DNA of 32,000 nucleotides from Gemmata obscuriglobus (GCF_008065095.1 NZ_CP042911.1:5490001-5522000), one strand, 5' to 3'; counted from the stretch's first letter, positions 2,047 to 28,088 are shown. Notes: generated from the sequence alone by a model not told the origin. A program made the numbers and translations.

Positions 2047-2199
2047 GCCGAACCAGGAGCTGAGCTGCAAGCCGCCCCTCTCAGGGCGGTCTCCCCTTGC
2101 TCCCGCGACGGCTGGTCAGCTCCAGCGGGGGGTTCGGCCGACGGCCGCCTCCTTCCGCCAGAGGATGAGTGAGCGTTGCAGCTCAGCTCCTGGTTCGGC
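2047..2199 (-). other. Alternative 153-nt palindromic attC-like site (copy 1 of 3)
   Basis: Perfect 24-bp terminal inverted repeat gccgaaccaggagctgagctgcaa / ttgcagctcagctcctggttcggc. It has the same R boxes as the attC sites, and an internal gttcggc at 2132-2138. Confidence 0.5.
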
Positions 2200-2372
2200 C
2201 GCCGCCGGATGAGCTCAGCCCACCGGGGACATCGCACGGCGGGAGATCACCATGCGACCTCAGGCCGCTCGGATCGGCGGGCCCTCGTCGGTCGCCTTCA
2301 CCAGGGGGGAGGTGGCGACAACCTTACGACCGCCCGCCGATCCGCGGCGCTTGCAACCACCTCACGGCGGCG
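2200..2372 (-). repeat. 173-nt ORF-less hairpin cassette body (copy 1 of 3)
   Basis: Closing stem cgccgccg (2200-2207) / cggcggcg (2365-2372). Inner 17-bp stem 2264-2282 / 2332-2348. No ORF conserved beyond the module. Confidence 0.55.
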
Positions 2373-2463: not shown

Positions 2464-2921
2464 TCGCTGACCTCTGCGGTTCCGGGGCACGCGCCCCGCA
2501 CCGCGCATCCGCGGAGCCCGGGCCACCGGTGCGGGCAGGCGGAGCACCACCGACCCGAACCGCCGTGTCCCGGCCCACCGAGGGCCGCCCACCACCGCAC
2601 CTCGCGGCGACGAGCCGCGCCGACCACACCCGGGCACTACGCGGAGCACCACCGACACGCACCGCCGTGTCGCGGCTCACTGGAGGCCGCCCACCACCGC
2701 CACTCGCGGCGATGAGCCGCGCCCGTTACCACCGGCACCACGCGGAGCACCACCGACCCGCAATCACCGTGTCCGCACCCGCTCCCGGCCACGCCCACCC
2801 ACCACTCGCGGCGGTGAGCCGCGCCCGTCGCACTCGGGCACCACGCGGAGCCCGACACTCGCCGTTTACCACCGCGGACCACACGTTCAGCGCCGCACGC
2901 GCACTCATGCACGCGATGGTT
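2464..2921 (-). repeat. ORF-less cassette body, subfamily 1, long form 458 nt (3 core hairpins)
   Basis: sub-repeat family with one extra ~101-nt unit. Confidence 0.65.
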
Positions 2922-3034
2922 GCCGAACGATGAAGCTCACCGGCCCGGCCGCGACACCCGCGGCCTGAACGACAAACGGATGAGCACTGAAAAACCGGGC
3001 AGATGGCCGGGTCCGGTGCAGCGCCGGGTTCGGC
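2922..3034 (-). other. attC site (L-stem variant)
   Basis: gctcaccggcccggcc pairs with ggccgggTccggtgCagc: compensated changes, with the same two bulged bases. Confidence 0.75.
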
Positions 3035-3074
3035 GTGACTCTGCTGCACAATCAGTTGCGCGCGACGCCGATAC

Positions 3075-4814: not shown

Positions 4815-4904
4815 GCCGAACAAATAGCTCACCGGCCGCGGTGTGAGCGACACGGTCTACAAACAGCGCATTATACAGCGGTCCGGTGCAGCGCCCGGTT
4901 CGGC
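4815..4904 (-). other. attC site (L-stem variant)
   Basis: gctcaccggccgc pairs with gcggTccggtgCagc. Confidence 0.75.
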
Positions 4905-5752: not shown

Positions 5753-6213
5753 TCCCTGACCACCGCGGTTCGGGGGCACACGCCGAGCACCGCGGCTCCG
5801 TGGATGCCCGCGGCACCGGTGCGGCCCTGCGGAGCATCACCGACTCCGCGCCCCGTGTCCCGGCCCACCGAGGGCCACCCACCACCGACACCTCGCGGCG
5901 GTGAGCCGCGCCCGCCACCAACGGCGCCACGCGGAGCACCACCGACACGACCCGCCGTGTCCCGGCACACCGGAGGCCACGCCCACCGCCACACGCGGCG
6001 ACGAGCCGCGCCAACCACCCACGGGCACCACGCGGAGCGCCACCGACCCGCACCACCGTGTCCCCACCCGCACCCGGCCACGCCCAACCGCCACTCGCGG
6101 CGGCGAGCCGCGCCAGACACCCACGAGCACCACGCGGAGCCCGGCGCGCGGGCGTCACCCACGCGGACCACACGCCCAGCACCACCGCACGGGCGCTCGC
6201 GCGGCTTTGGGTG
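5753..6213 (-). repeat. ORF-less cassette body, subfamily 1, long form 461 nt
   Basis: sub-repeat family. Confidence 0.65.
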
Positions 6214-7060: not shown

Positions 7061-7151
7061 GCCGAACATACAGCTCACCGGCCGCGGGACCACGCGACAC
7101 GGTCGGGAAAGTACGTATTTGACCGCGGTCCGGTGCAGCGCCGGGTTCGGC
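7061..7151 (-). other. attC site (L-stem variant)
   Basis: gctcaccggccgcgg pairs with ccgcggTccggtgCagc. Confidence 0.75.
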
Positions 7152-7570: not shown

Positions 7571-7661
7571 GCCGAACATAAAGCTCACCTGCACCGCCAT
7601 CACCGGATGAGCGGTGCGCCCCCAATCAGCCGGCGGTGTCAGGTGCAGCGCCGGGTTCGGC
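7571..7661 (-). other. attC site
   Basis: canonical; contains the stop codon of the SUKH ORF. Confidence 0.8.
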
Positions 7662-8075
7662 GTTTGGGGATAACCCGGCGGCCAGGAACGCGGGGAACGA
7701 AGGGGCCATCTCGTGGATGCCGCCAAAGTCGTGATCCTCGACCAGCACTCGCCCGGACGAGAGCTCGATGCCGAACGGGTTGCCGCCGCCATCCCAACCG
7801 ATGATGAACACTCCTCGCATGTGCCAGAACTCGTTGTCCGCTCGGAACTGGCGGTGCGAATCGGCCAACTCGGGCAGCCCGTCGATCCACTCGCCGTCAC
7901 CGCCCACGCGCCCGCCGCACACCGTCAGGTACTCGCGGAACGCTGGCGGGATCGTCCCGAACTCGACCTCGAACGCCCGCAGGTCGCCCTCGGCGGCCGG
8001 CGGGTGGCGTTCCTCCTCAGGGCAGGCGTGCCACGCCGCGACAAGGAGTTGCCGCAGTCGCTCGTTCACATGCAA
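7626..8075 (-). CDS. SMI1/KNR4 (SUKH-1) family protein, copy 1 of 3
   Basis: Motifs IPPAFREYLTVCGG and FIIGWDGGGNPFGIE are typical of SMI1_KNR4. The start is TTG at 8075, or more likely GTG at 8069 (GAGGG 7 nt upstream). The stop lies inside the attC loop. Confidence 0.8.
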   Translation of the reverse strand: MHVNERLRQLLVAAWHACPEEERHPPAAEGDLRAFEVEFGTIPPAFREYLTVCGGRVGGDGEWIDGLPELADSHRQFRADNEFWHMRGVFIIGWDGGGNPFGIELSSGRVLVEDHDFGGIHEMAPSFPAFLAAGLSPNAEPGAAPDTAG

Positions 8076-8085
8076 GCCCTCTGTG

Positions 8086-11416: not shown

Positions 11417-11507
11417 GCCGAACATAAAGCTCACCTGCACCGCCATCACCGGATGAGCGGTGCGCCCCCAATCAGCCGGCGGTGTCAGGTGCAGCGCCGG
11501 GTTCGGC
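11417..11507 (-). other. attC site
   Basis: canonical; identical to 7571-7661. Confidence 0.8.
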
Positions 11508-11921
11508 GTTTGGGGATAACCCGGCGGCCAGGAACGCGGGGAACGAAGGGGCCATCTCGTGGATGCCGCCAAAGTCGTGATCCTCGACCAGCACTCGCCC
11601 GGACGAGAGCTCGATGCCGAACGGGTTGCCGCCGCCATCCCAACCGATGATGAACACTCCTCGCATGTGCCAGAACTCGTTGTCCGCTCGGAACTGGCGG
11701 TGCGAATCGGCCAACTCGGGCAGCCCGTCGATCCACTCGCCGTCACCGCCCACGCGCCCGCCGCACACCGTCAGGTACTCGCGGAACGCTGGCGGGATCG
11801 TCCCGAACTCGACCTCGAACGCCCGCAGGTCGCCCTCGGCGGCCGGCGGGTGGCGTTCCTCCTCAGGGCAGGCGTGCCACGCCGCGACAAGGAGTTGCCG
11901 CAGTCGCTCGTTCACATGCAA
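11472..11921 (-). CDS. SMI1/KNR4 (SUKH-1) family protein, copy 2 of 3
   Basis: All overlapping track ORFs translate identically to those at 7626-8096. Confidence 0.8.
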   Translation of the reverse strand: MHVNERLRQLLVAAWHACPEEERHPPAAEGDLRAFEVEFGTIPPAFREYLTVCGGRVGGDGEWIDGLPELADSHRQFRADNEFWHMRGVFIIGWDGGGNPFGIELSSGRVLVEDHDFGGIHEMAPSFPAFLAAGLSPNAEPGAAPDTAG

Positions 11922-11931
11922 GCCCTCTGTG

Positions 11932-13789: not shown

Positions 13790-13942
13790 GCCGAACCAGG
13801 AGCTGAGCTGCAAGCCGCCCCTCTCAGGGCGGTCTCCCCTTGCTCCCGCGACGGCTGGTCAGCTCCAGCGGGGGGTTCGGCCGACGGCCGCCTCCTTCCG
13901 CCAGAGGATGAGTGAGCGTTGCAGCTCAGCTCCTGGTTCGGC
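13790..13942 (-). other. Alternative 153-nt palindromic attC-like site (copy 2 of 3)
   Basis: same 24-bp terminal inverted repeat as 2047-2199. Confidence 0.5.
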
Positions 13943-14115
13943 CGCCGCCGGATGAGCTCAGCCCACCGGGGACATCGCACGGCGGGAGATCACCATGCGA
14001 CCTCAGGCCGCTCGGATCGGCGGGCCCTCGTCGGTCGCCTTCACCAGGGGGGAGGTGGCGACAACCTTACGACCGCCCGCCGATCCGCGGCGCTTGCAAC
14101 CACCTCACGGCGGCG
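13943..14115 (-). repeat. 173-nt ORF-less hairpin cassette body (copy 2 of 3)
   Basis: same sequence as 2200-2372. Confidence 0.55.
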
Positions 14116-15032: not shown

Positions 15033-15123
15033 GCCGAACATAAAGCTCACCTGCACCGCCCTCACCGGATGAGCGGTGCGTCCCGAATCAGCCGGCGGTG
15101 TCAGGTGCAGCGCCGGGTTCGGC
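15033..15123 (-). other. attC site
   Basis: canonical; contains the stop of SUKH copy 3. Confidence 0.8.
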
Positions 15124-15537
15124 GTTTGGGGATAACCCGGCGGCCAGGAACGCGGGGAACGAAGGGGCCATCTCGTGGATGCCGCCAAAGTCGTGATCCT
15201 CGACCAGCACTCGCCCGGACGAGAGCTCGATGCCGAACGGGTTGCCGCCGCCATCCCAACCGATGATGAACACTCCTCGCATGTGCCAGAACTCGTTGTC
15301 CGCTCGGAACTGGCGGTGCGAATCGGCCAACTCGGGCAGCCCGTCGATCCACTCGCCGTCACCGCCCACGCGCCCGCCGCACACCGTCAGGTACTCGCGG
15401 AACGCTGGCGGGATCGTCCCGAACTCGACCTCGAACGCCCGCAGGTCGCCCTCGGCGGCCGGCGGGTGGCGTTCCTCCTCAGGGCAGGCGTGCCACGCCG
15501 CGACAAGGAGTTGCCGCAGTCGCTCGTTCACATGCAA
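15088..15537 (-). CDS. SMI1/KNR4 (SUKH-1) family protein, copy 3 of 3
   Basis: Translations are identical to copies 1 and 2 in all frames. Confidence 0.8.
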   Translation of the reverse strand: MHVNERLRQLLVAAWHACPEEERHPPAAEGDLRAFEVEFGTIPPAFREYLTVCGGRVGGDGEWIDGLPELADSHRQFRADNEFWHMRGVFIIGWDGGGNPFGIELSSGRVLVEDHDFGGIHEMAPSFPAFLAAGLSPNAEPGAAPDTAG

Positions 15538-15547
15538 GCCCTCTGTG

Positions 15548-17274: not shown

Positions 17275-17367
17275 GCCGAACAATGAAGCTCACCGGCTTG
17301 CCCCCGCTCAGGTGAGTTCCGCGGATGTAATCAGCAGGGGCAAGTCCGGTGCAGCGCCGGGTTCGGC
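17275..17367 (-). other. attC site (L-stem variant)
   Basis: gctcaccggcttgcccc pairs with ggggcaagTccggtgCagc. Confidence 0.75.
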
Positions 17368-18363: not shown

Positions 18364-18725
18364 TCGCTCACGTCCGCGGTTCCGGGCCACACGCCGAGCG
18401 CCACGCATCCGCGGAAGCCCGCCCACCGTCGCGGCCGAGCGGAGCACCACCGACCCCACCCGCCGTGTCCCGGCCCACCGCAGGCCACCCACCACCGCAC
18501 CTCGCGGCGATGAGCCGCGCCCGCCACCGGCGGGGGCCACGCGGAGCACCACCGACCCGAACCACCGTGCCGTCGCACACCGGAGGCCACGCACCACTGC
18601 ACCTCGCGGCGACGAGCCGCGCCCACCACCGACCGGCACCACGCGGAGCACTACCGACACGCGGGGGCACCCACGCGGACAACACGCCCCGCACCGCCGC
18701 ACGCGCGATCGAGCGGCTTGGGGTG
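18364..18725 (-). repeat. ORF-less cassette body, subfamily 1, 362 nt
   Basis: sub-repeat family. Confidence 0.65.
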
Positions 18726-19721: not shown

Positions 19722-19874
19722 GCCGAACCAGGAGCTGAGCTGCAAGCCGCCCCTCTCAGGACGGTCTCCCCTTGCTCCCGCGGCGGCTTGTCAGCTCCAG
19801 CGGGGGGTTCGGCCGACGGCCGCCTCCTTCCGCCAGAGGGTGAGTGAGCGTTGCAGCTCAGCTCCTGGTTCGGC
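19722..19874 (-). other. Alternative 153-nt palindromic attC-like site (copy 3 of 3)
   Basis: same 24-bp terminal inverted repeat as 2047-2199. Confidence 0.5.
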
Positions 19875-20047
19875 CGCCGCCGGATGAGCTCAGCCCACCG
19901 GGGACATCGCACGGCGGGAGAACACCATGCGACCTCGGGCCGCTCGGATCGGCGGGCCCTCGCCGGTCGCCTTCACCAGGGGGGAGGTGGCGACAACCTT
20001 ACGACCGCCCGCCGATCCGCGGCGCTTGCAACCACCTCACGGCGGCG
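19875..20047 (-). repeat. 173-nt ORF-less hairpin cassette body (copy 3 of 3)
   Basis: same as 2200-2372 with a few substitutions. Confidence 0.55.
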
Positions 20048-20855: not shown

Positions 20856-20862
20856 GCCGAAC
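20856..20862 (-). other. Terminal solo R box (array/flank junction; candidate attI crossover point)
   Basis: gccgaac with no partner arm. The sequence to its right (cagtgtttagtgtgcgagg...) is unrelated to any attC. Confidence 0.5.
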
Positions 20863-21100
20863 CAGTGTTTAGTGTGCGAGGCTTCGCGCAATAACACGGG
20901 ATGATTTCACCCGCCGCACCGCGCGCCGGGGACCGAACTCCTGACCGGCCTTATCGTTACCGTGTGAAGGTCGCCTTCACAATATGCGCAATAACACGGT
21001 AATGGGCCGTGCGAAACTTCGACTCGCCCTTCATGGCTCGCACAATACTGCGTCCCGGGTAGTTAACGCACCCTTTGGTCACGGATGCTCTCTAACTGGT

Positions 21101-21558
21101 ATGAGCAGACCCATCGGAACGCCTGTCGAACTGGAACGCCGCCGTCAGCAGGCGGTACAAGCTGTTGCGGACGGTCCGGCCCGCCAGACGGTCGCGACGG
21201 TCCTGGGGGTTCACGTCAAGACCGTGTCCCGCTGGGTCCGGGCCGCACGCACGCCCGGCGGCGTGGCGGCCAAGGTCCACCCGGGTCCGACCCCAGGCCT
21301 GACGGACGACGACCTCAAGCGATTGGCCGAGTTGCTGCTCCAAGGGGCCAAGGCCCACGGGTGGCACAACCAGCTCTGGACGGCGGCACGGGTTGCCCGG
21401 TTGATCGAGCACGAGTTCCACATCCGGTACCACCCGGAACACGTCCGGGAGATCCTCAAGCGGCGGCTCGGGTGGACCAGCCAGAAGCCCCGCCGGAAGG
21501 CCCGGGAGCGAAACGACAAGGAGGTGGCGAGGTGGGTCGGTGACGAGGGGTGCCCCTG
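21101..21558 (+). pseudogene. IS630-family transposase, N-terminal (HTH) fragment
   Basis: LTDDDLKRLAELLLQGAKAHGWHNQLWTAARVARLIEHEFHIRYHPEHVREILKRRLGWTSQKPRRKA is typical of the IS630 N-terminus. Similarity stops near 21558, where another IS end begins. Confidence 0.7.
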
Positions 21559-22001
21559 GGTCCACGACACGGTTTGCAAGTTGGGGTATCATGATAGACC
21601 GCGGCTCGAAGAAATAACGGCCGTGCGAGCCACACAAGTCGTTGGTGGAGATCAGGTATGGCACGCCCCAATAACGCTCGTCCCGAAGTCGCAGCGAATA
21701 AGGCGTACCTGGACGGGGTGGCCAAAACGTTGGTCGAGAGGCTGTTCGGACCCGATGGGCCGCCGTGGGGCACGACGTTCGAGGAACTCGAAGAACTGGT
21801 CGTCCAGTTGGGCCAAACGGTGTCACGCGAACTGCTCCGCCAAGCTCTCCAGAAACAAGCGGCCGGCACCATACCCGCCGAGAGACAACAATGCCCGGGG
21901 TGCCGACAGACGCCATCACCCGGTGATCCCGAACCACGCATCCTCACCACGCGGGTCGGGGAAGCGGAGTGGAGCGAACCGTCGGCCTACTGCACCGCCT
22001 G
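21559..22001 (+). mobile_element. 5' fragment of a second copy of the IS at 25343-27077 (terminal repeat + N-terminal transposase fragment 21658..22001)
   Basis: The end ggtccacgacacggtttgc matches the 19-bp TIR aggtcacgccacggtttgc at 15/19. The ORF starts ~83 nt inside and has the same CxxC...CxxC zinc-finger layout. It is cut at 22001 by the next IS. Confidence 0.55.
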
Positions 22002-23468
22002 CCGGGTGCCCCTCTGGATTTTGGCATTTGTGAACGGTATGGGAGCCGGCTGGGGAAGCCGTGGCAATCTGGGAGGGATACTGATGCCGACGCTGACTAT
22101 AGAATACAGTACCGAATCCGAACGGTTGGCCTTGGAACAACTGCTGGGCTATTTCACGGACCTGAATCGTCTGGCCCAAGAAGCTCCCGACGGCACGGTC
22201 CTGGCCGCCTGCGAGAAGCATGCACTCGATCAAGGGCGCAAACTGTTGCGGACCACACTCGGTGCCGCCTTGGGTTCACGGATCGAGAAGGACGAGCAAA
22301 AAGGGGGCGCGCCCGCACCTGCGCGAAGACGCACCCCGGGCGCTCCAAAGGACCGCACACCCGAACGGTTGTGACCGCCGTTGGTCCGATTGAGCTGGAG
22401 CGGAGGTATTTCCACTGCCCCACTTGCGGGCAAGGCGAGTTCGGAGCCGATCGCGGGCTGGGCCTCAGCGGCTACGTCACCCCGGGCGCCTGTCGGATGG
22501 CCGTCTTGCTGGGCGTCCAACAGTCCTTCGCCAAAGCCGAAGTGACTCTGGCCGAGGTGGTCGGCTGGGAATTGGACGACAACACCATCCGGCAACTCTG
22601 CCACGCCACGGCGGCCCAGGCCACCGCCACCCGGCAACACCGCTCGACCGCTGAAGTCTTCACCCGAGCCCAAGCCGCGGCCAGGACCGAGCGGCCGGTG
22701 GACAGCGAGTTGCACATCGACGCGGGCAAGGTCAACACTGTGGAGGACGGTTGGCGGGATCTCAAGATGGCCGTTTTTGCCCGGCGCGAGCGAAGTGCGC
22801 CGACCACGGCGATGGACTGGGAGGGACGCGACCTGCCAACCCCGTTGGCGCGGTCGGTGATCGCGGCCGTGGAGGAGGCGAGCCTGTTCGGGAAGCGGTG
22901 TCACGACGAGGCCACGCGACTGGAGTGGACCGATTCGAGCCAAATGACGGTACTGGGGGATGGGGCCGAGTGGTTGTGGAACGTGTCCGAGCAGCACTTC
23001 CGTGACGCGACCCAGGTCCTCGACTTCTGGCATGGGGCGGAGTACCTCGCCAGCGGGGCGAAGGCGGTGTTCGGTCCCGGGGTCCAAGCCGCGACGGCGT
23101 TTGTCCGGGGCAAGTCGAAGCTGCTGGAAGACGGATATCCCGGGTTGGTGGACTGGATCGGAGAACTGACCGGGCAGATGCCCGCCGGAGGCGACGGAGC
23201 CGCCTTGGGCGGCGTATTGAATTACTTTTGTGGCCAACAGGGGCGGTTGAATTATGCGGTGCGTTTGCGGCGGGGGCAGTCGATTGGAAGCGGGTTGGTG
23301 GAGGGAACGGTTAAGCAATTGCTCAACATCAGAATGAAACAAACTGGGGCGAGATGGAATCTGGGGCATGTGGCACCGTTTGTCGAACTGGGGGCATTAG
23401 CAGCGGGGCCGGAGTGGAAGGGGTTTTGGGAAAACCAATAACGGGCCAAAATCCAGAGGGGCACCCGG
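22002..23468 (+). mobile_element. Complete-looking IS (1467 bp), ISKra4-like (family tentative)
   Basis: 24-bp perfect terminal inverted repeats: ccgggtgcccctctggattttggc at 22002-22025, and its reverse complement at 23445-23468. Confidence 0.7.
22084..23441 (+). pseudogene. DDE transposase of the 22002-23468 IS; needs a -1 frameshift near 22298-22307
   Basis: ORFa MPTLTIEYSTESERLALEQLL... and ORFb ...RYFHCPTCGQ...LGDGAEWLWN...VLDFWHGAEYL...IGSGLVEGTVKQLLNIRMKQTGARW overlap at an aaaaaggggg run. Confidence 0.65.
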
Positions 23469-23471
23469 GAC

Positions 23472-24821
23472 CTCTCCAAGCAAGTCGCCGAACTCACGGC
23501 CCAGGTCGCCGAACTGACCCGGCGGCTGGACGAGGCCACGCGCGCCGGCAAGCGGCAGGCCGCTCCGTTCCGCAAGGGCCCGCCCAAGCCGAACCCGAAG
23601 CCACCCGGCCGCAAGTCGGGCGATGTCCACGGCAAGCACGGTCACCGCTCGCCGCCCCCACCCGAACAGGTCGCCGAGTGCCACGAGGCCGACCTCCCCG
23701 ACGCGTGCCCGCACTGCCGGGGCCGGCTCGTCGAGACCGGCACGGCCGAACAGTTCCAGACCGAGATCCCACGCCAGCCGCTGATCCGCAAGTTCCGTAT
23801 CCACATCGGGCACTGTGAGGCGTGCGGGAAGCGGACCCAGGGCCGGCACCCGCTCCAGACGTCCGACGCCCTGGGCGCGGCGGCCAGCCAGGTCGGCCCG
23901 GACGCTCAGACCGCGGCGGCGCTCCTGCACACCCAGATGGGGCTGTCGCACGGCAAGGTCGCGTCGGTCTTCGAGACCCTGTTCGGCATCACGCTGACGC
24001 GCGGGGCCAGCGCCCAGATCGGCCTACGGGCCGCCACGCGGCTGGAGCCGGACTACCACCTGATCCTCGGCGAGGTGCGGGCGTCCGAGCAGATTGCGGC
24101 CGACGAGACGGGTTGGCGGATCGGAGGGCACCCGGCCTGGCTCCACGCGTGGGTCGCCGACCGGGCCACGGCTTACGGCGTCGACTCGAAACGCAGTGCC
24201 GACGCCCTGGAGCGGGTGATCGGGGCGGACTGGTCGGGCGTCCTGAGCCACGACGGGTTCGCCTCCTACGAGCGATTCGAGGGGGCGATCCACCAGCAGT
24301 GCCTGGCCCATGTGCTCCGCCGCGCGCGGGAACTGCTGGAGCGGGCGACCCGCGGGGCCGTGCGGTTCCCGCGCCAGGTGATCGCGCGGTTCACCGAGGC
24401 GATCCACTGGCGGAATGAGTACGCGCCGGGGACGTGGACCGACGACCAACGGGACGCGCACCGGTCGCAGTTCGACGACCGCCTGCTGGAGTTGGTGACG
24501 CGACCGCGGGCGGTGCCGGCGTACGTGACGCTGGCGAAGCACCTGTGGAACCATTTCGAGCAGTGGTTTACGTTCGTGTTCGACCCGCGGGTCGAGCCCA
24601 CCAACTGGAAGGCCGAGCAGGCGATTCGCCCCGCGGTTGTGAACCGCAAGGTGTGGGGCGGGAACCGGACCGCCGCGGGCGCGAAGGCGCAAGGCGTGTT
24701 GATGTCCGTGTTCGAGACGTGCCGCCGCCGGACCCTCTCGGTCGTGGATCACGTCAGCCACACGTTGCGATGCTTCGGAAACCGGCTCCTACCTCGCCCT
24801 GTGCTACTACCGGCGCGCTAA
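23472..24821 (+). pseudogene. IS66-family transposase, 5'-truncated
   Basis: The open frame runs from the IS end at 23468 with no start codon until 23937. It contains a coiled-coil (AELTAQVAELTRRLDEA), a zinc finger (CPHCRG...CEACGK), ADETGWRIGG, QQCLAHVLRR and EPTNWKAEQAIRPAVVNRKVWGGNRT. Confidence 0.75.
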
Positions 24822-25342: not shown

Positions 25343-27077
25343 AGGTCACGCCACGGTTTGCGCCGTGACATCCTCTGGTTTATGGCAGCATGTATCTCGT
25401 TTGCGGAACGGGCATCCCGGCCGTTCGGTGAAGAACCGTGGGAGCCGGTCGTCTTGGCTGAGCACCGCGGCCCGCAGTTGGAGGATCGATTCGGCACCGT
25501 CGGGACGGTTCCAGTGCTTCTGCGTGCTCTTCACCCGTGCGTTGGCCTCGCCCACCAACGACTCGACCAAACTGCTGGTCGTCGGGAGCCCGTGGCGTCG
25601 GTACCGCGGATAGTCCATGCGATTACGATTATTCCCCAGGTAGCTCCGCGCCTGGGCCACCACCCGGCGCGGGTCCCTTTGCTCCTCGGCCGTCAACGCC
25701 TCGCTCGGTGGGGTTTCGCACAGACGCGCCTGCCACTGGTCCAGTTCCACCAGTACCTCCCCGGCTCGGCCTTGCCAGCACGCCCGCATCCACACCCGGT
25801 ATTGGGACCAACCGGCGCCCTCATCGGCGCTCACCGCCGCGGCCGCGGAGAACACGTAACAGACCGCGTGCAGGAAATCCTCGATCGGCTCGAAGTACCC
25901 GAAGTACCCGCGCCAGATGGTCCAGTTGTACGCTTGACCGTCGGCCACGAACGCGCGCCGCGGGGCCGCATAGAAGCGCCGCTCCTGGGCCTCCGCGGCC
26001 ATCATCAGGCCGAACGAGGCGCTCGTCTCCAGGCTCGCCACGCACGTCCGTACCAACCGCGTCGGGGACCACCGCTCGGCCCCTTCGGGTTCCCCGACCT
26101 GCGACCTCGGGGACGCCGATTCGTCCGGGCTTTCCAGGACCGCGGCCTCGCCCGCCGCGCCCTTCATCTGCTGGACCAGGCGACGTACCCGGCGCGGGCA
26201 GTGGAACGATTCGGGCGGTTCGGGACACGGGTCGGCGGCAAACGTGGGGCCGCTCAACGTGGCCAGGCACGCCACCTTATCCTCCTTGTTCTGGGCGCCG
26301 TGAACACCCGGCCCGGAACCCGCGGCGCGGGTGCGGATGCGCCCCCCATCGACCTCCACCACCACGGCCACGGGGATCACTTCGGTCCGCGGCTCCAACT
26401 GGCGCCGCCGGTGCTCGACCACCTTCCGGTCGCGCCGGGCGATCAACTCGCGGCCCACCCCCGTGAGCCAATCGCCGCACCTGGTTGTCGCTGATCGTGC
26501 CCCCGGTCATCCGCACCGCATCCGCGGCGTCACGGAACGACGAGAACCGGGCGGCGGCGGTGACGATGCGTTGAACGACCGAGGAACTGTACCCGTGCTC
26601 ATCCAGCCCCAGTGTCACCCGCAGGGGGGAAAAAGTCCCGTCGGCAGGCGGGACAATGGGCGATCCGTTCGGGTTGCTGGACCGTGGCCCCTTGGGCCGC
26701 CAGGGTGCGGGTGTGTGGTCGGGTCGGGCACGGCTCGCCACACACCGGACACGGAACCTGTTCGGGCACCTTCTGGGCTTGCTGGCGGAGCATCTGCTGG
26801 AGCGCCCCTTCGGTGAGCCCTTGTGCCGCCGCGGTGGCGATCTGCTCCATCGTTCGGAAGTCCACATCCAACCCCGGCCCGTCCTCCCCGAACGCCCGCT
26901 TGGAAACGATTTTGCCCCACGCCGCCGCCAGTTCCCGGAGTTGGTCCAGTTCCTCGGCCGTGAAACGCGGTGTGCTCATGACTCGCCCCACACAACAGTT
27001 GCGGCGAAATCGACCCGCGCTTTTCCTATCCCAAGGCCCGAGGGACGCAAGGGCCACTGCAAACCGTGGCGTGACCT
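25343..27077 (-). mobile_element. IS (1735 bp) nested in the IS66 element; zinc-finger DDE transposase, family uncertain (ISKra4-related?)
   Basis: 19-bp perfect TIRs: aggtcacgccacggtttgc at 25343-25361, and its reverse complement at 27059-27077. Flanked by an 11-bp direct repeat cggtgctttgg (25332-25342 and 27078-27088). Confidence 0.8.
25346..26979 (-). pseudogene. Transposase of the nested IS, with two frameshifts
   Basis: Three overlapping frames (26599..26979, 26460..26640, 25346..26458) join into one protein. The shifts fall in a tttttcccccc run (~26625-26635) and a ggggg run (~26455-26470). Confidence 0.65.
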
Positions 27078-27088
27078 CGGTGCTTTGG

Positions 27089-28088
27089 CTCCGGTCCAAT
27101 AGGCGTTGACGGCATCGGTGAGGAACGCCAGGACATTACGCTCCTGTCGGCGGCACGAGGCGATGACCGTGAGGATCCGTTCCACGAACCAGCTCCCCTG
27201 CTCGCTGTCGGTCCCGAAGCTCGCTTTCCGCCAGCACACCGCGTGACGCACCTCGCGCTCGGCCGCGTTGTTGGTCGGGTCCACACCGAGGACCCGGCGA
27301 ACGTCCACAGGGACGCCTCGATGGCCAACCGCTCGCGGCATTCCCGGCCGTCTTCGGGCACCCGCACCGGACGCCCTTCTCCAGGTGCGTGCGGACCCGG
27401 GTCCGAAACCCGCGGACGTACACGCATCGGAACGTGGCCCGGGACACGGTGCTGTCCCGAACACGGAACCAATGCTCGAACAGGGTGTCGGAACACCCGA
27501 GCAGGTCGGCTCCGATCCCCGCGCCCCCGTTGGCCCGGTCGATCATGGCCTGGAAGTCCCGCCGCAGGTGTGCCCAACACACCTGCGGCTTGTGCTTCGG
27601 CAGGTGCGTGTACACCGGGTATCGGTCGGTCGTGTGCACCTGGGGCGAACCCGCCCGCAGGTCCTCGAACGTCGTGCCACAGCGGGAACACCGGAGCCGG
27701 TGGCACCGGTACTCGGTCACGTGAGGCGTGACCACGGGGATCTCGTGGACCTGATGAACCGCCGGGTCTGGGTCGTCCCAGGTCAGCGGATGCGCGCAGT
27801 CCCGGCACGTGGCCGGTTGGAGGGTCCGGACCTCATCGGGGGGGCAGGAGTGTGCGTTCGGCCTTGGGGTGTCCGGGTTGGCCGCCCCGACTCTTGCCCG
27901 AAGGTGCCTGGGGACGGGGCCAGTTTTACGTACGGGGCGTCAGACGACGGCGGCTGGGACGAGTTGGTCGAGTTCTGGTTGAGACGGGCCTCGAGTTCCG
28001 CGATCTTGGCTTCGAGGACGCGAATATACGCCACCACCGGCGCGGGCAGGTTATCGGGGAGGTCCGGTGGTTGAGGAACAGGTGTCAT
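27089..28088 (-). pseudogene. IS66-family transposase remnant
   Basis: Pieces in three frames: MTPVPQ...LEAKIAELEARLNQNSTNSSQPPSSD, VTEYRCHRLRCSRCGTT, TTDRYPVYTHLP...VCWAHLRRDF and DPTNNAAEREVRHAVCWRKASFGT. The DETGW catalytic segment is missing. Confidence 0.7.

Follow-up and report, generated by a model that had tools for sequence, protein, structure and literature searches.

A gene-less integron cassette of Gemmata obscuriglobus with a canonical attC site and a second, competing arm

A 326-nt unit without an evident gene occurs three times in a 32,000-nt stretch of the Gemmata obscuriglobus genome (GCF_008065095.1 NZ_CP042911.1:5490001-5522000; hereafter the window, with positions counted from its first nucleotide), and it raises the question of what kind of element this is and what the long palindrome in its left part has to do with recombination. 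The original prediction described the unit as a mobile cassette made of a 153-nt perfect-palindrome attC-like site plus a long hairpin, and all three copies were found as claimed, at 2047-2372, 13790-14115 and 19722-20047. The first two are identical at 326 of 326 nucleotides, and the third, which is the third cassette counted from the attI end of the surrounding array, differs from the first by seven substitutions at the equivalents of 2086, 2108, 2114, 2165, 2247, 2262 and 2288. The parts of the module, the array and the attI remnant described below read on the - strand, save for one complementary segment (2176-2207) to which no strand is assigned. The unit had also been called ORF-less, and in agreement with this no ORF is conserved across the lineages in which it occurs, the indels between lineages not being multiples of three. 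A small protein encoded in the module was considered and rejected, as no ORF is common to the lineages and a protein search with the longest frame, which is open in all three copies, returned no protein match.

The copies are embedded in an array of 45 attC sites (245-20585), 90-93 nt long except for one of 113 nt, lying 326-574 nt apart and each bounded by GCCGAAC...GTTCGGC; GCCGAAC itself occurs 107 times in the window, compared with 10.3 occurrences expected by chance. In its genomic context (G. obscuriglobus CP025958.1, ~2.49-2.54 Mb) the array extends to about 1.5 kb left of the window, where it ends beside mutS. In the + strand, the 3′ arm of the sites holds the bulged bases and the arm facing it the AAC, which is the arrangement of a recombinogenic bottom strand (PMC5027507), and the cassettes are therefore read on the - strand, the strand on which all called cassette genes of the array are found. 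Read in this direction, the order of attC plus hairpin originally given for the module is reversed: the body comes first (2372-2200), followed by a 24-nt arm (2199-2176), a 37-nt spacer and the attC (2138-2047). Beyond the last GCCGAAC (20856), on the integrase-proximal side, the array gives way to sequence that shares homology with the Gemmata algarum intI-attI spacer and with two attI sites of Gemmataceae bacterium CJuql4, and for this reason 20856-21060 is assigned as an attI remnant together with the former intI-attI spacer. No intI gene was found in the window and its ~8 kb flanks, including by tblastn for remnants, and the place of the integrase is taken by an IS630-like ORF (20984-22033), IS66 transposase genes (23937-24821) and IS66 fragments (27026-27808). 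The local array is an integron without its integrase, in other words a CALIN with an attI remnant.

Several other features of this array deserve mention in their own right. As many as 26 of the 45 cassettes are ORF-less and consist of one to three tandem units of ~101-102 nt (for example at 2539-2851, 5829-6140 and 18417-18658), each unit carrying the GC-rich hairpin GCGGCGRYGAGCCGCG; indel lengths among them do not follow multiples of three and the copies agree on no ORF, so that they form a second and much larger non-coding family, and 29 of the 45 array cassettes are without a gene. Such a proportion raises the question of whether non-coding cassettes have a function or are selfish passengers of the integron. 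A coding cassette for 149 aa on the - strand likewise occurs three times (7571-8085, 11417-11931 and 15033-15547; 99-100% identity, with an extra internal GCCGAAC), which indicates that cassette duplication is common in the array and that the module is no exception in this respect. A different L box, AGCTCACCGGC... / ...GTCCGGTGCAGC, sets apart a minority class among the attC sites, at 2922-3034, 4815-4904, 7061-7151 and 17275-17367, and the one site of 113 nt belongs to this class.

Whether the module is a cassette or an element that has merely landed among cassettes can be judged from its boundaries. The left boundary had been placed at the R box with differing neighbours, and the copies are alike exactly from GCCGAAC and unrelated leftwards of it, where copy 1 adjoins a coding cassette for 113 aa and copies 2 and 3 adjoin ORF-less cassettes of the repeat type. 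Past 2372 they are alike only through the next array-wide attC (2373-2463), and the flanks of the module are the array's own R boxes, with no further duplication. These varied neighbours, and the fact that all genuine homologues lie within attC arrays, two of them directly at attI sites, uphold the view of the module as a mobile cassette. A MITE-like element that ends in inverted repeats of 24 bp and has no more than the R box in common with cassettes would explain the perfect inverted repeats of 24-25 bp, the 142-153 nt length of the unit that they bound and its multiple copies. However, the inverted-repeat unit is never seen without the body, no genuine copy lies outside attC arrays, the ends fall on the core sites of recombination and attI crossover points are among the places where homologues are inserted; target-site duplications around copies outside arrays, which had been named as the mark of a MITE, were looked for and absent from all genuine homologues. 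On its array-only context, its ends at core sites and its insertion at attI, we reject a MITE origin as extremely improbable and treat the unit as a gene-less cassette family of Gemmataceae integrons, read on the - strand.

The family was traced by an exact search with the arm, using one genome per species, and by a metagenome scan, which together revealed homologues in four other Gemmataceae lineages, 73-90% identical and all inside attC arrays with the same core boxes. The genome search yielded two sources, a Gemmata sp. MAG (L001; 90% identical, with a truncated attC) and Gemmataceae bacterium CJuql4 (73% identical), the latter with four complete identical copies and one partial copy (two and the partial one in L002, the others in L003 and L004), and the metagenome contigs added L007 and L011, of the CJuql4 type, as well as L014 and L019, which represent further lineages. 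The orientation of the module is that of its neighbours in 12 of 12 occurrences, and the body and the dual-arm attC always occur together, in copies and homologues alike. In CJuql4 the module abuts attI beside an integron integrase (449 bits for TIGR02249, whose cutoff is 265), and a second module is the first cassette at another attI-like site, ~70% identical and without an integrase; the module copies at these two attI sites are identical, which points to independent recent insertions or to conversion. No module copy was present in nine loci around other Gemmataceae integron integrases (L027-L035), nhmmer detected no divergent copies in 218 kb of sequence beyond those already found, and a body-specific pattern had no match among viral contigs. 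Other exact matches to the arm, searched as a 19-mer, fell in unrelated low-GC sequences and were dismissed as chance.

Three observations on these homologous loci may be added. In L002 of CJuql4 (2649-3070) an assembly gap lies between two module copies, followed by the partial third copy abutting attI, and the identical repeats probably broke the assembly, so that the copy number there is possibly underestimated. In the Gemmataceae integrons (L002 3223-4392; L027-L035) the integrase gene is on the strand of the cassettes and transcribed towards them; in the classical integron arrangement it is divergent from the cassettes. Finally, pairs of IS110-family (DEDD) transposase genes are located inside the arrays just downstream of the integrase in two metagenomic or MAG loci (L027 12919-15642 and L033 8170-10960), recalling the attC-targeting insertion sequences.

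What, then, is the recombination site of this cassette? The original prediction took the 153-nt palindrome as the attC equivalent and remarked that an internal GTTCGGC at 2132-2138 allows an alternative fold of 92 nt. Both the internal box and the shorter fold are real, and the equation of the palindrome with attC fails, because the internal GTTCGGC bounds the actual site, a canonical attC of 92 nt at 2047-2138 (13790-13881 and 19722-19813 in the other copies) with its R′ box at 2047-2053 and its R″ box at 2132-2138. The inverted core sites GCCGAAC and GTTCGGC at these two positions are the boxes of the other array sites, and the fold consists of a 7-bp R stem, an unpaired spacer of 5 nt and a stem with a bulged T and a bulged C on the 3′ arm of the + strand. 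This arm reads GGCTGG-T-CAGCTC-C-AGC-GGGGG-GTTCGGC in the module and GGCGGTG-T-CAGGTG-C-AGC-GCCGG-GTTCGGC in the array consensus, and the architecture of the inner site equals that of the other 42 array sites base for base, with bulges and unpaired spacer at the same places. The R stem, spacer, L stem and extrahelical bases that define an attC fold are thus found in the inner 92-nt site and not in the 153-nt outer pairing. The core box GCCGAAC departs from the RYYYAAC consensus once, with G for Y, and the module lacks the promoterless ORF of gene cassettes, which places it in an ORF-less subclass. Judged by sequence, the inner site appears to agree with the attC and cassette family in every respect apart from a local integrase and an ORF. 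Strand exchange by the integrase would take place within the AAC of the R′ box, on the bottom (+) strand, so that by the crossover rule the first copy would move as 2053-2378, whichever partner its R′-L′ arm has. The body was also compared with attC as a possible degenerate or inverted site, and this idea was discarded, its local alignments being no better than those of shuffled sequences save for one marginal match of 21 nt.

The feature first read as a 153-nt attC is a composite of the 92-nt attC and an extra, competing arm. This outer R″-L″ arm (2176-2199; 13919-13942 and 19851-19874 in the other copies) is the exact reverse complement of 2047-2070, and it pairs with no bulges and with the spacer paired as well. 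The 24-bp perfect inverted repeat of the original prediction is accordingly present, 100% complementary (25 nt with 2046/2200) and with 105 nt between the arms, and the 153-nt stretch reaches about -55 kcal/mol on either strand (z of about -6.5; none of 200 shuffles did as well). The extra arm is separated from the inner R″ box by a spacer of 37 nt (2139-2175), which measures 30-37 nt in the homologues and is poorly conserved. The outer arm continues directly into the closing stem of the body, and one 32-nt strand (2176-2207) is therefore complementary to both ends of the cassette, pairing with 2365-2372 and then with 2047-2070, that is, with the junction of the excised circle; 32 of the 32 pairs are Watson-Crick. 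The same strand also matches the adjoining array-type attC of the upstream cassette (2373-2463): over 35 nt, 2173-2207 shows 83% complementarity to the R′-L′ arm of that site (2365-2399). No comparable extra arm was found in the other 42 attC sites of the array.

If both pairings matter, both should have left traces in the divergence of the lineages. No lineage departs from the others in the first 22 bp of the outer helix, and covariation is seen at position 23: in the shared arm this position is T in three lineages and C in two (L019, L014), its outer partner changes from A to G (columns 215/324, AU in three sequences and GC in two) and its inner partner likewise changes from A to G (columns 278/324, AU in two and GC in two). 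Since the T-to-C change is compensated in both alternative partners, both pairings are maintained, and on this alignment the cleavable R′-L′ arm has two mutually exclusive partners, inner and outer, both retained by selection. The inner site is 97.7% paired across six sequences, and its spacer and bulged bases vary in identity and not in position. In the helices of the body and the outer arm, 97.7% of the cells form pairs, compared with at most 42% when the partners are slid, one whole base pair has been inserted in the closing stem of CJuql4, and five pairs are changed on both sides, and the covariation score lies above all 500 shuffles, in figures that are drawn from 4-5 independent lineages.

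These data also bear on another explanation, that the extra arm is a neutral by-product of a single templated copying error or rearrangement in an attC and has been kept perfect by intrastrand templated repair or gene conversion, a functionless hitch-hiker on a successful cassette. Copies within a genome are identical, which points to homogenization or recent spread, and as the first 22 bp of both arms never vary there is no covariation signal in that part. However, the arm and the junction complement persist through 10-27% overall divergence in 4-5 lineages, compensatory changes have occurred on both sides of the 32-nt strand (the inserted pair of the closing stem and position 23 with its two partners), and a harmful mask on a recombination site should be lost without selection for it. 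We consider a neutral origin and maintenance unlikely and continue with the reading in which both partners of the arm are under selection.

Predicted folding shows a marked bias between the two partners. In an equilibrium model in which SSB, integrase and folding kinetics are not part, the ensemble of the bottom strand over 2047-2463 gives the outer helix a probability of 0.8-0.98 and the inner attC fold 0.000, the 32-bp helix of a circular single-stranded cassette reaches 0.99, and the full site lies at ~-54 kcal/mol in all five lineages compared with -25 to -30 for the inner site alone. The dominance of the outer helix, by far the more stable fold on both strands, could be taken to mean that the 153-nt perfect palindrome is itself the functional site, bulge-less and usable on either strand, the more so as engineered attC sites without bulged bases still recombine, and do so on both strands (PMC5027507). 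However, a canonical attC with array-typical bulges and spacer is conserved inside the palindrome in all lineages and covaries with the shared arm, and a strand-neutral site predicts some inverted copies where every occurrence is in the orientation of its neighbours. The palindrome as a working site is thus very unlikely in our view. The original remark that a bulge-less site is atypical for lack of strand selectivity holds for the outer pairing: in experiments, deletion of the bulged bases weakens strand selectivity or does away with it, lowers recombination for some attC sites, shifts selectivity towards the top strand and in some sites makes the two strands nearly equal (PMC5027507).

We are then left with an ordinary attC whose cleavable arm can pair in two ways, and the question becomes what the second pairing would do. 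With the inner partner the arm would give the recombinogenic fold, and with the outer one a perfect helix of 24 bp without any unpaired feature. On single-stranded DNA the outer arm may thus act as a built-in decoy or clamp for recombination, a proposal to which we give somewhat less than an even chance. It would pull the cleavable arm away from the recombinogenic fold, and through the closing stem and the 83% match the outer strand could also tie up the R′-L′ arm of the upstream attC, the partner in excision. The site would be on only transiently, for instance when the integrase captures the inner hairpin, and integrated copies would consequently resist re-excision and accumulate. Several findings speak against such a clamp. 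The same mask should hinder insertion too, being strongest in the excised circle, and yet the cassette has several copies, which do not differ within a genome, and takes the first place at two attI sites, so that it looks highly mobile; it is absent from the nine other Gemmataceae integrase loci; and perfect palindromes can be homogenized by templated repair without selection. Moreover, in some attC sites removal of the bulges leaves bottom-strand recombination undiminished (PMC5027507), which means that a perfect helix need not be an off state and might alter strand choice instead. Features of the body, finally, would fit a role as RNA at least as well, namely G·U pairs that exist on the - strand alone and the better RNA z-score of that strand.

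The non-coding body spans 173 nt (2200-2372), and with the flanking R boxes it forms a domain at 2193-2379. The long hairpin described in the original prediction was recovered in all its parts: the closing stem CGCCGCCG/CGGCGGCG is present and amounts to 15 bp when the R boxes are counted (2193-2207 / 2365-2379), the inner stem with a 2-nt bulge pairs 2264-2282 with 2332-2348 in 12+5 bp, and the apical GTCGCC/GGCGAC stem follows. Within the domain, the long hairpin H1 (2264-2348) has a lower 12+5-bp stem that is specific to this lineage, and its apical stem (2291-2296 / 2314-2319) and loop flanks are invariant in all lineages. In hairpin H2 (2230-2259), which covaries, both partners have changed in three of nine pairs, and the G·U pairs that it has in this lineage form on the - strand only. 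Hairpin H3 (2205-2226) has an invariant loop, GCUGAGC (GCTCAGC on the + strand, 2213-2219). This loop is also identical to part of the R″-L″ arms (cf. 2056-2068 and 2178-2190) and complementary to the shared arm, for which it is a possible third partner. As DNA of the + strand the body has a z-score of -5.0, and as RNA of the - strand one of -7.3.

The main rival to the DNA clamp is accordingly that the cassette makes a structured non-coding RNA of ~190-330 nt from the sense (-) strand, with the extra arm as part of that RNA. The 24-bp helix stacked on the closing stem would then define or protect the RNA ends inside a long transcript of the array, for instance as a site of double-strand-specific processing, and the DNA site would be masked only incidentally. 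Folded as RNA, the - strand reaches -125 kcal/mol (z -7.3) compared with -107 (z -5.5) for the + strand, and it is the more stable one in four of five lineages, whereas L019 folds equally well on both. On the opposite strand, three G·U pairs of the covarying H2 would turn into A·C mismatches; two lineages have a - strand G·U at stem position 24, and the loops GCUGAGC, ACCU...UGAA and GAGCRAGGGGA are invariant. Body and arm are contiguous and always linked, and ORF-less cassettes producing regulatory RNA are known in Xanthomonas (PMC8876359). However, the - strand is G+T-rich across the array, so that G·U pairs are favoured by composition alone, and the same wobble bias is seen in the stem of the inner attC, a stem that functions as DNA of the + strand; wobble is therefore a weak guide to the functional strand. 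Nor do consensus signals come to the aid of an RNA gene. A promoter scan of 1600-2600 gave no sigma-70-type match, planctomycete promoter types being outside the consensus used, and a terminator consensus scan gave nothing; Rfam returned no match to any family at gathering thresholds in the window, and at relaxed thresholds, in the window and four homologous loci, weak and inconsistent matches with E > 0.1. As the sole purpose of the extra arm, such an RNA strikes us as possible but doubtful. The clamp and an RNA role do not exclude each other, and the body most likely is transcribed as a structured RNA from the sense strand, which may be a second function of the cassette beside the decoy proposed for its arm.

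Taken together, the account that we find best, and about as likely to hold as not, is that of a gene-less Gemmataceae cassette with an ordinary attC and a competing extra arm acting as decoy or clamp. A further and more tentative step would be to regard the site as self-gating, the arm toggling between the bulged attC fold and the perfect helix, and the excised single-stranded circle adopting the shape of a dumbbell. Should it be true, this would be the first natural integron cassette to use alternative folds of its DNA for control over its excision, its insertion or the choice of strand, and it could explain how a gene-less cassette has spread to the first position of several arrays. The frequency with which an attC folds into its recombinogenic shape is regarded as a main determinant of cassette mobility, and to our knowledge this folding has so far been studied with single-fold natural sites and engineered mutants. 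A conserved natural site with two folds, one of them devoid of all the unpaired features on which the integrase is thought to depend, would offer a natural system for examining how folding controls excision, insertion and orientation.

It remains to place the module among known systems. Like the cassettes and attC sites of integrons in general (e.g., the VCR of Vibrio, and the model of IntegronFinder; PMC4889954), the inner site has the same core sites with AAC/GTT triplets, an R stem, an unpaired spacer, an L stem with two bulges opposite AAC and a variable terminal structure, and the module lies in an array, is bounded at core sites and has homologues at attI beside an integron integrase. 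Unlike a usual attC, it possesses a second perfect R″-L″ arm, 37 nt upstream of the real one and competing for the cleavable arm, and unlike usual cassettes it has a 32-nt complement to the circle junction, a core box with G for Y and a local array without integrase, and it has no ORF. Neither a junction complement nor a further arm of perfect complementarity is described for any natural attC in the integron literature compared here.

Gene-less cassettes as such are known, encoding regulatory RNA in Xanthomonas campestris and providing promoters in Treponema and Vibrionaceae (PMC8876359, PMC6557892, PMC11014356), and the module, which adds to this little-studied class, shares with them the lack of coding capacity, a normal attC, multiple copies in chromosomal arrays and a possible RNA or regulatory role. 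It differs from the promoter cassettes in having no sigma-70-type promoter match, and from the known gene-less cassettes in its body, a closed multi-helix domain of ~187 nt with R boxes in the closing stem; the dual-arm attC is absent from the descriptions of these cassettes (PMC8876359, PMC6557892, PMC11014356). Other short or non-coding repeats inside cassette arrays are represented by IS1111-attC elements, group IIC-attC introns and MITEs. Unlike the attC-targeting elements, the module has no transposase, intron RNA or Rfam intron match, and its ends are cassette crossover points where such elements insert within attC.

The outer pairing may further be seen as the natural counterpart of the engineered attC mutants without bulges or with altered spacers (PMC5027507), with its spacer also paired. 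Unlike in those mutants, the bulge-less fold coexists with the wild-type fold on one molecule and encloses a loop of 105 nt. What appears to be new here is the conserved competing arm with its junction complement, whereas ORF-less cassettes themselves were already known. In its logic, one segment having two exclusive partners whose choice decides the functional structure, the module recalls attenuators and the expression platforms of riboswitches; unlike in these, the functional structure is a recombination site of single-stranded DNA in place of an RNA terminator, and the likeness is one of logic and not of membership.
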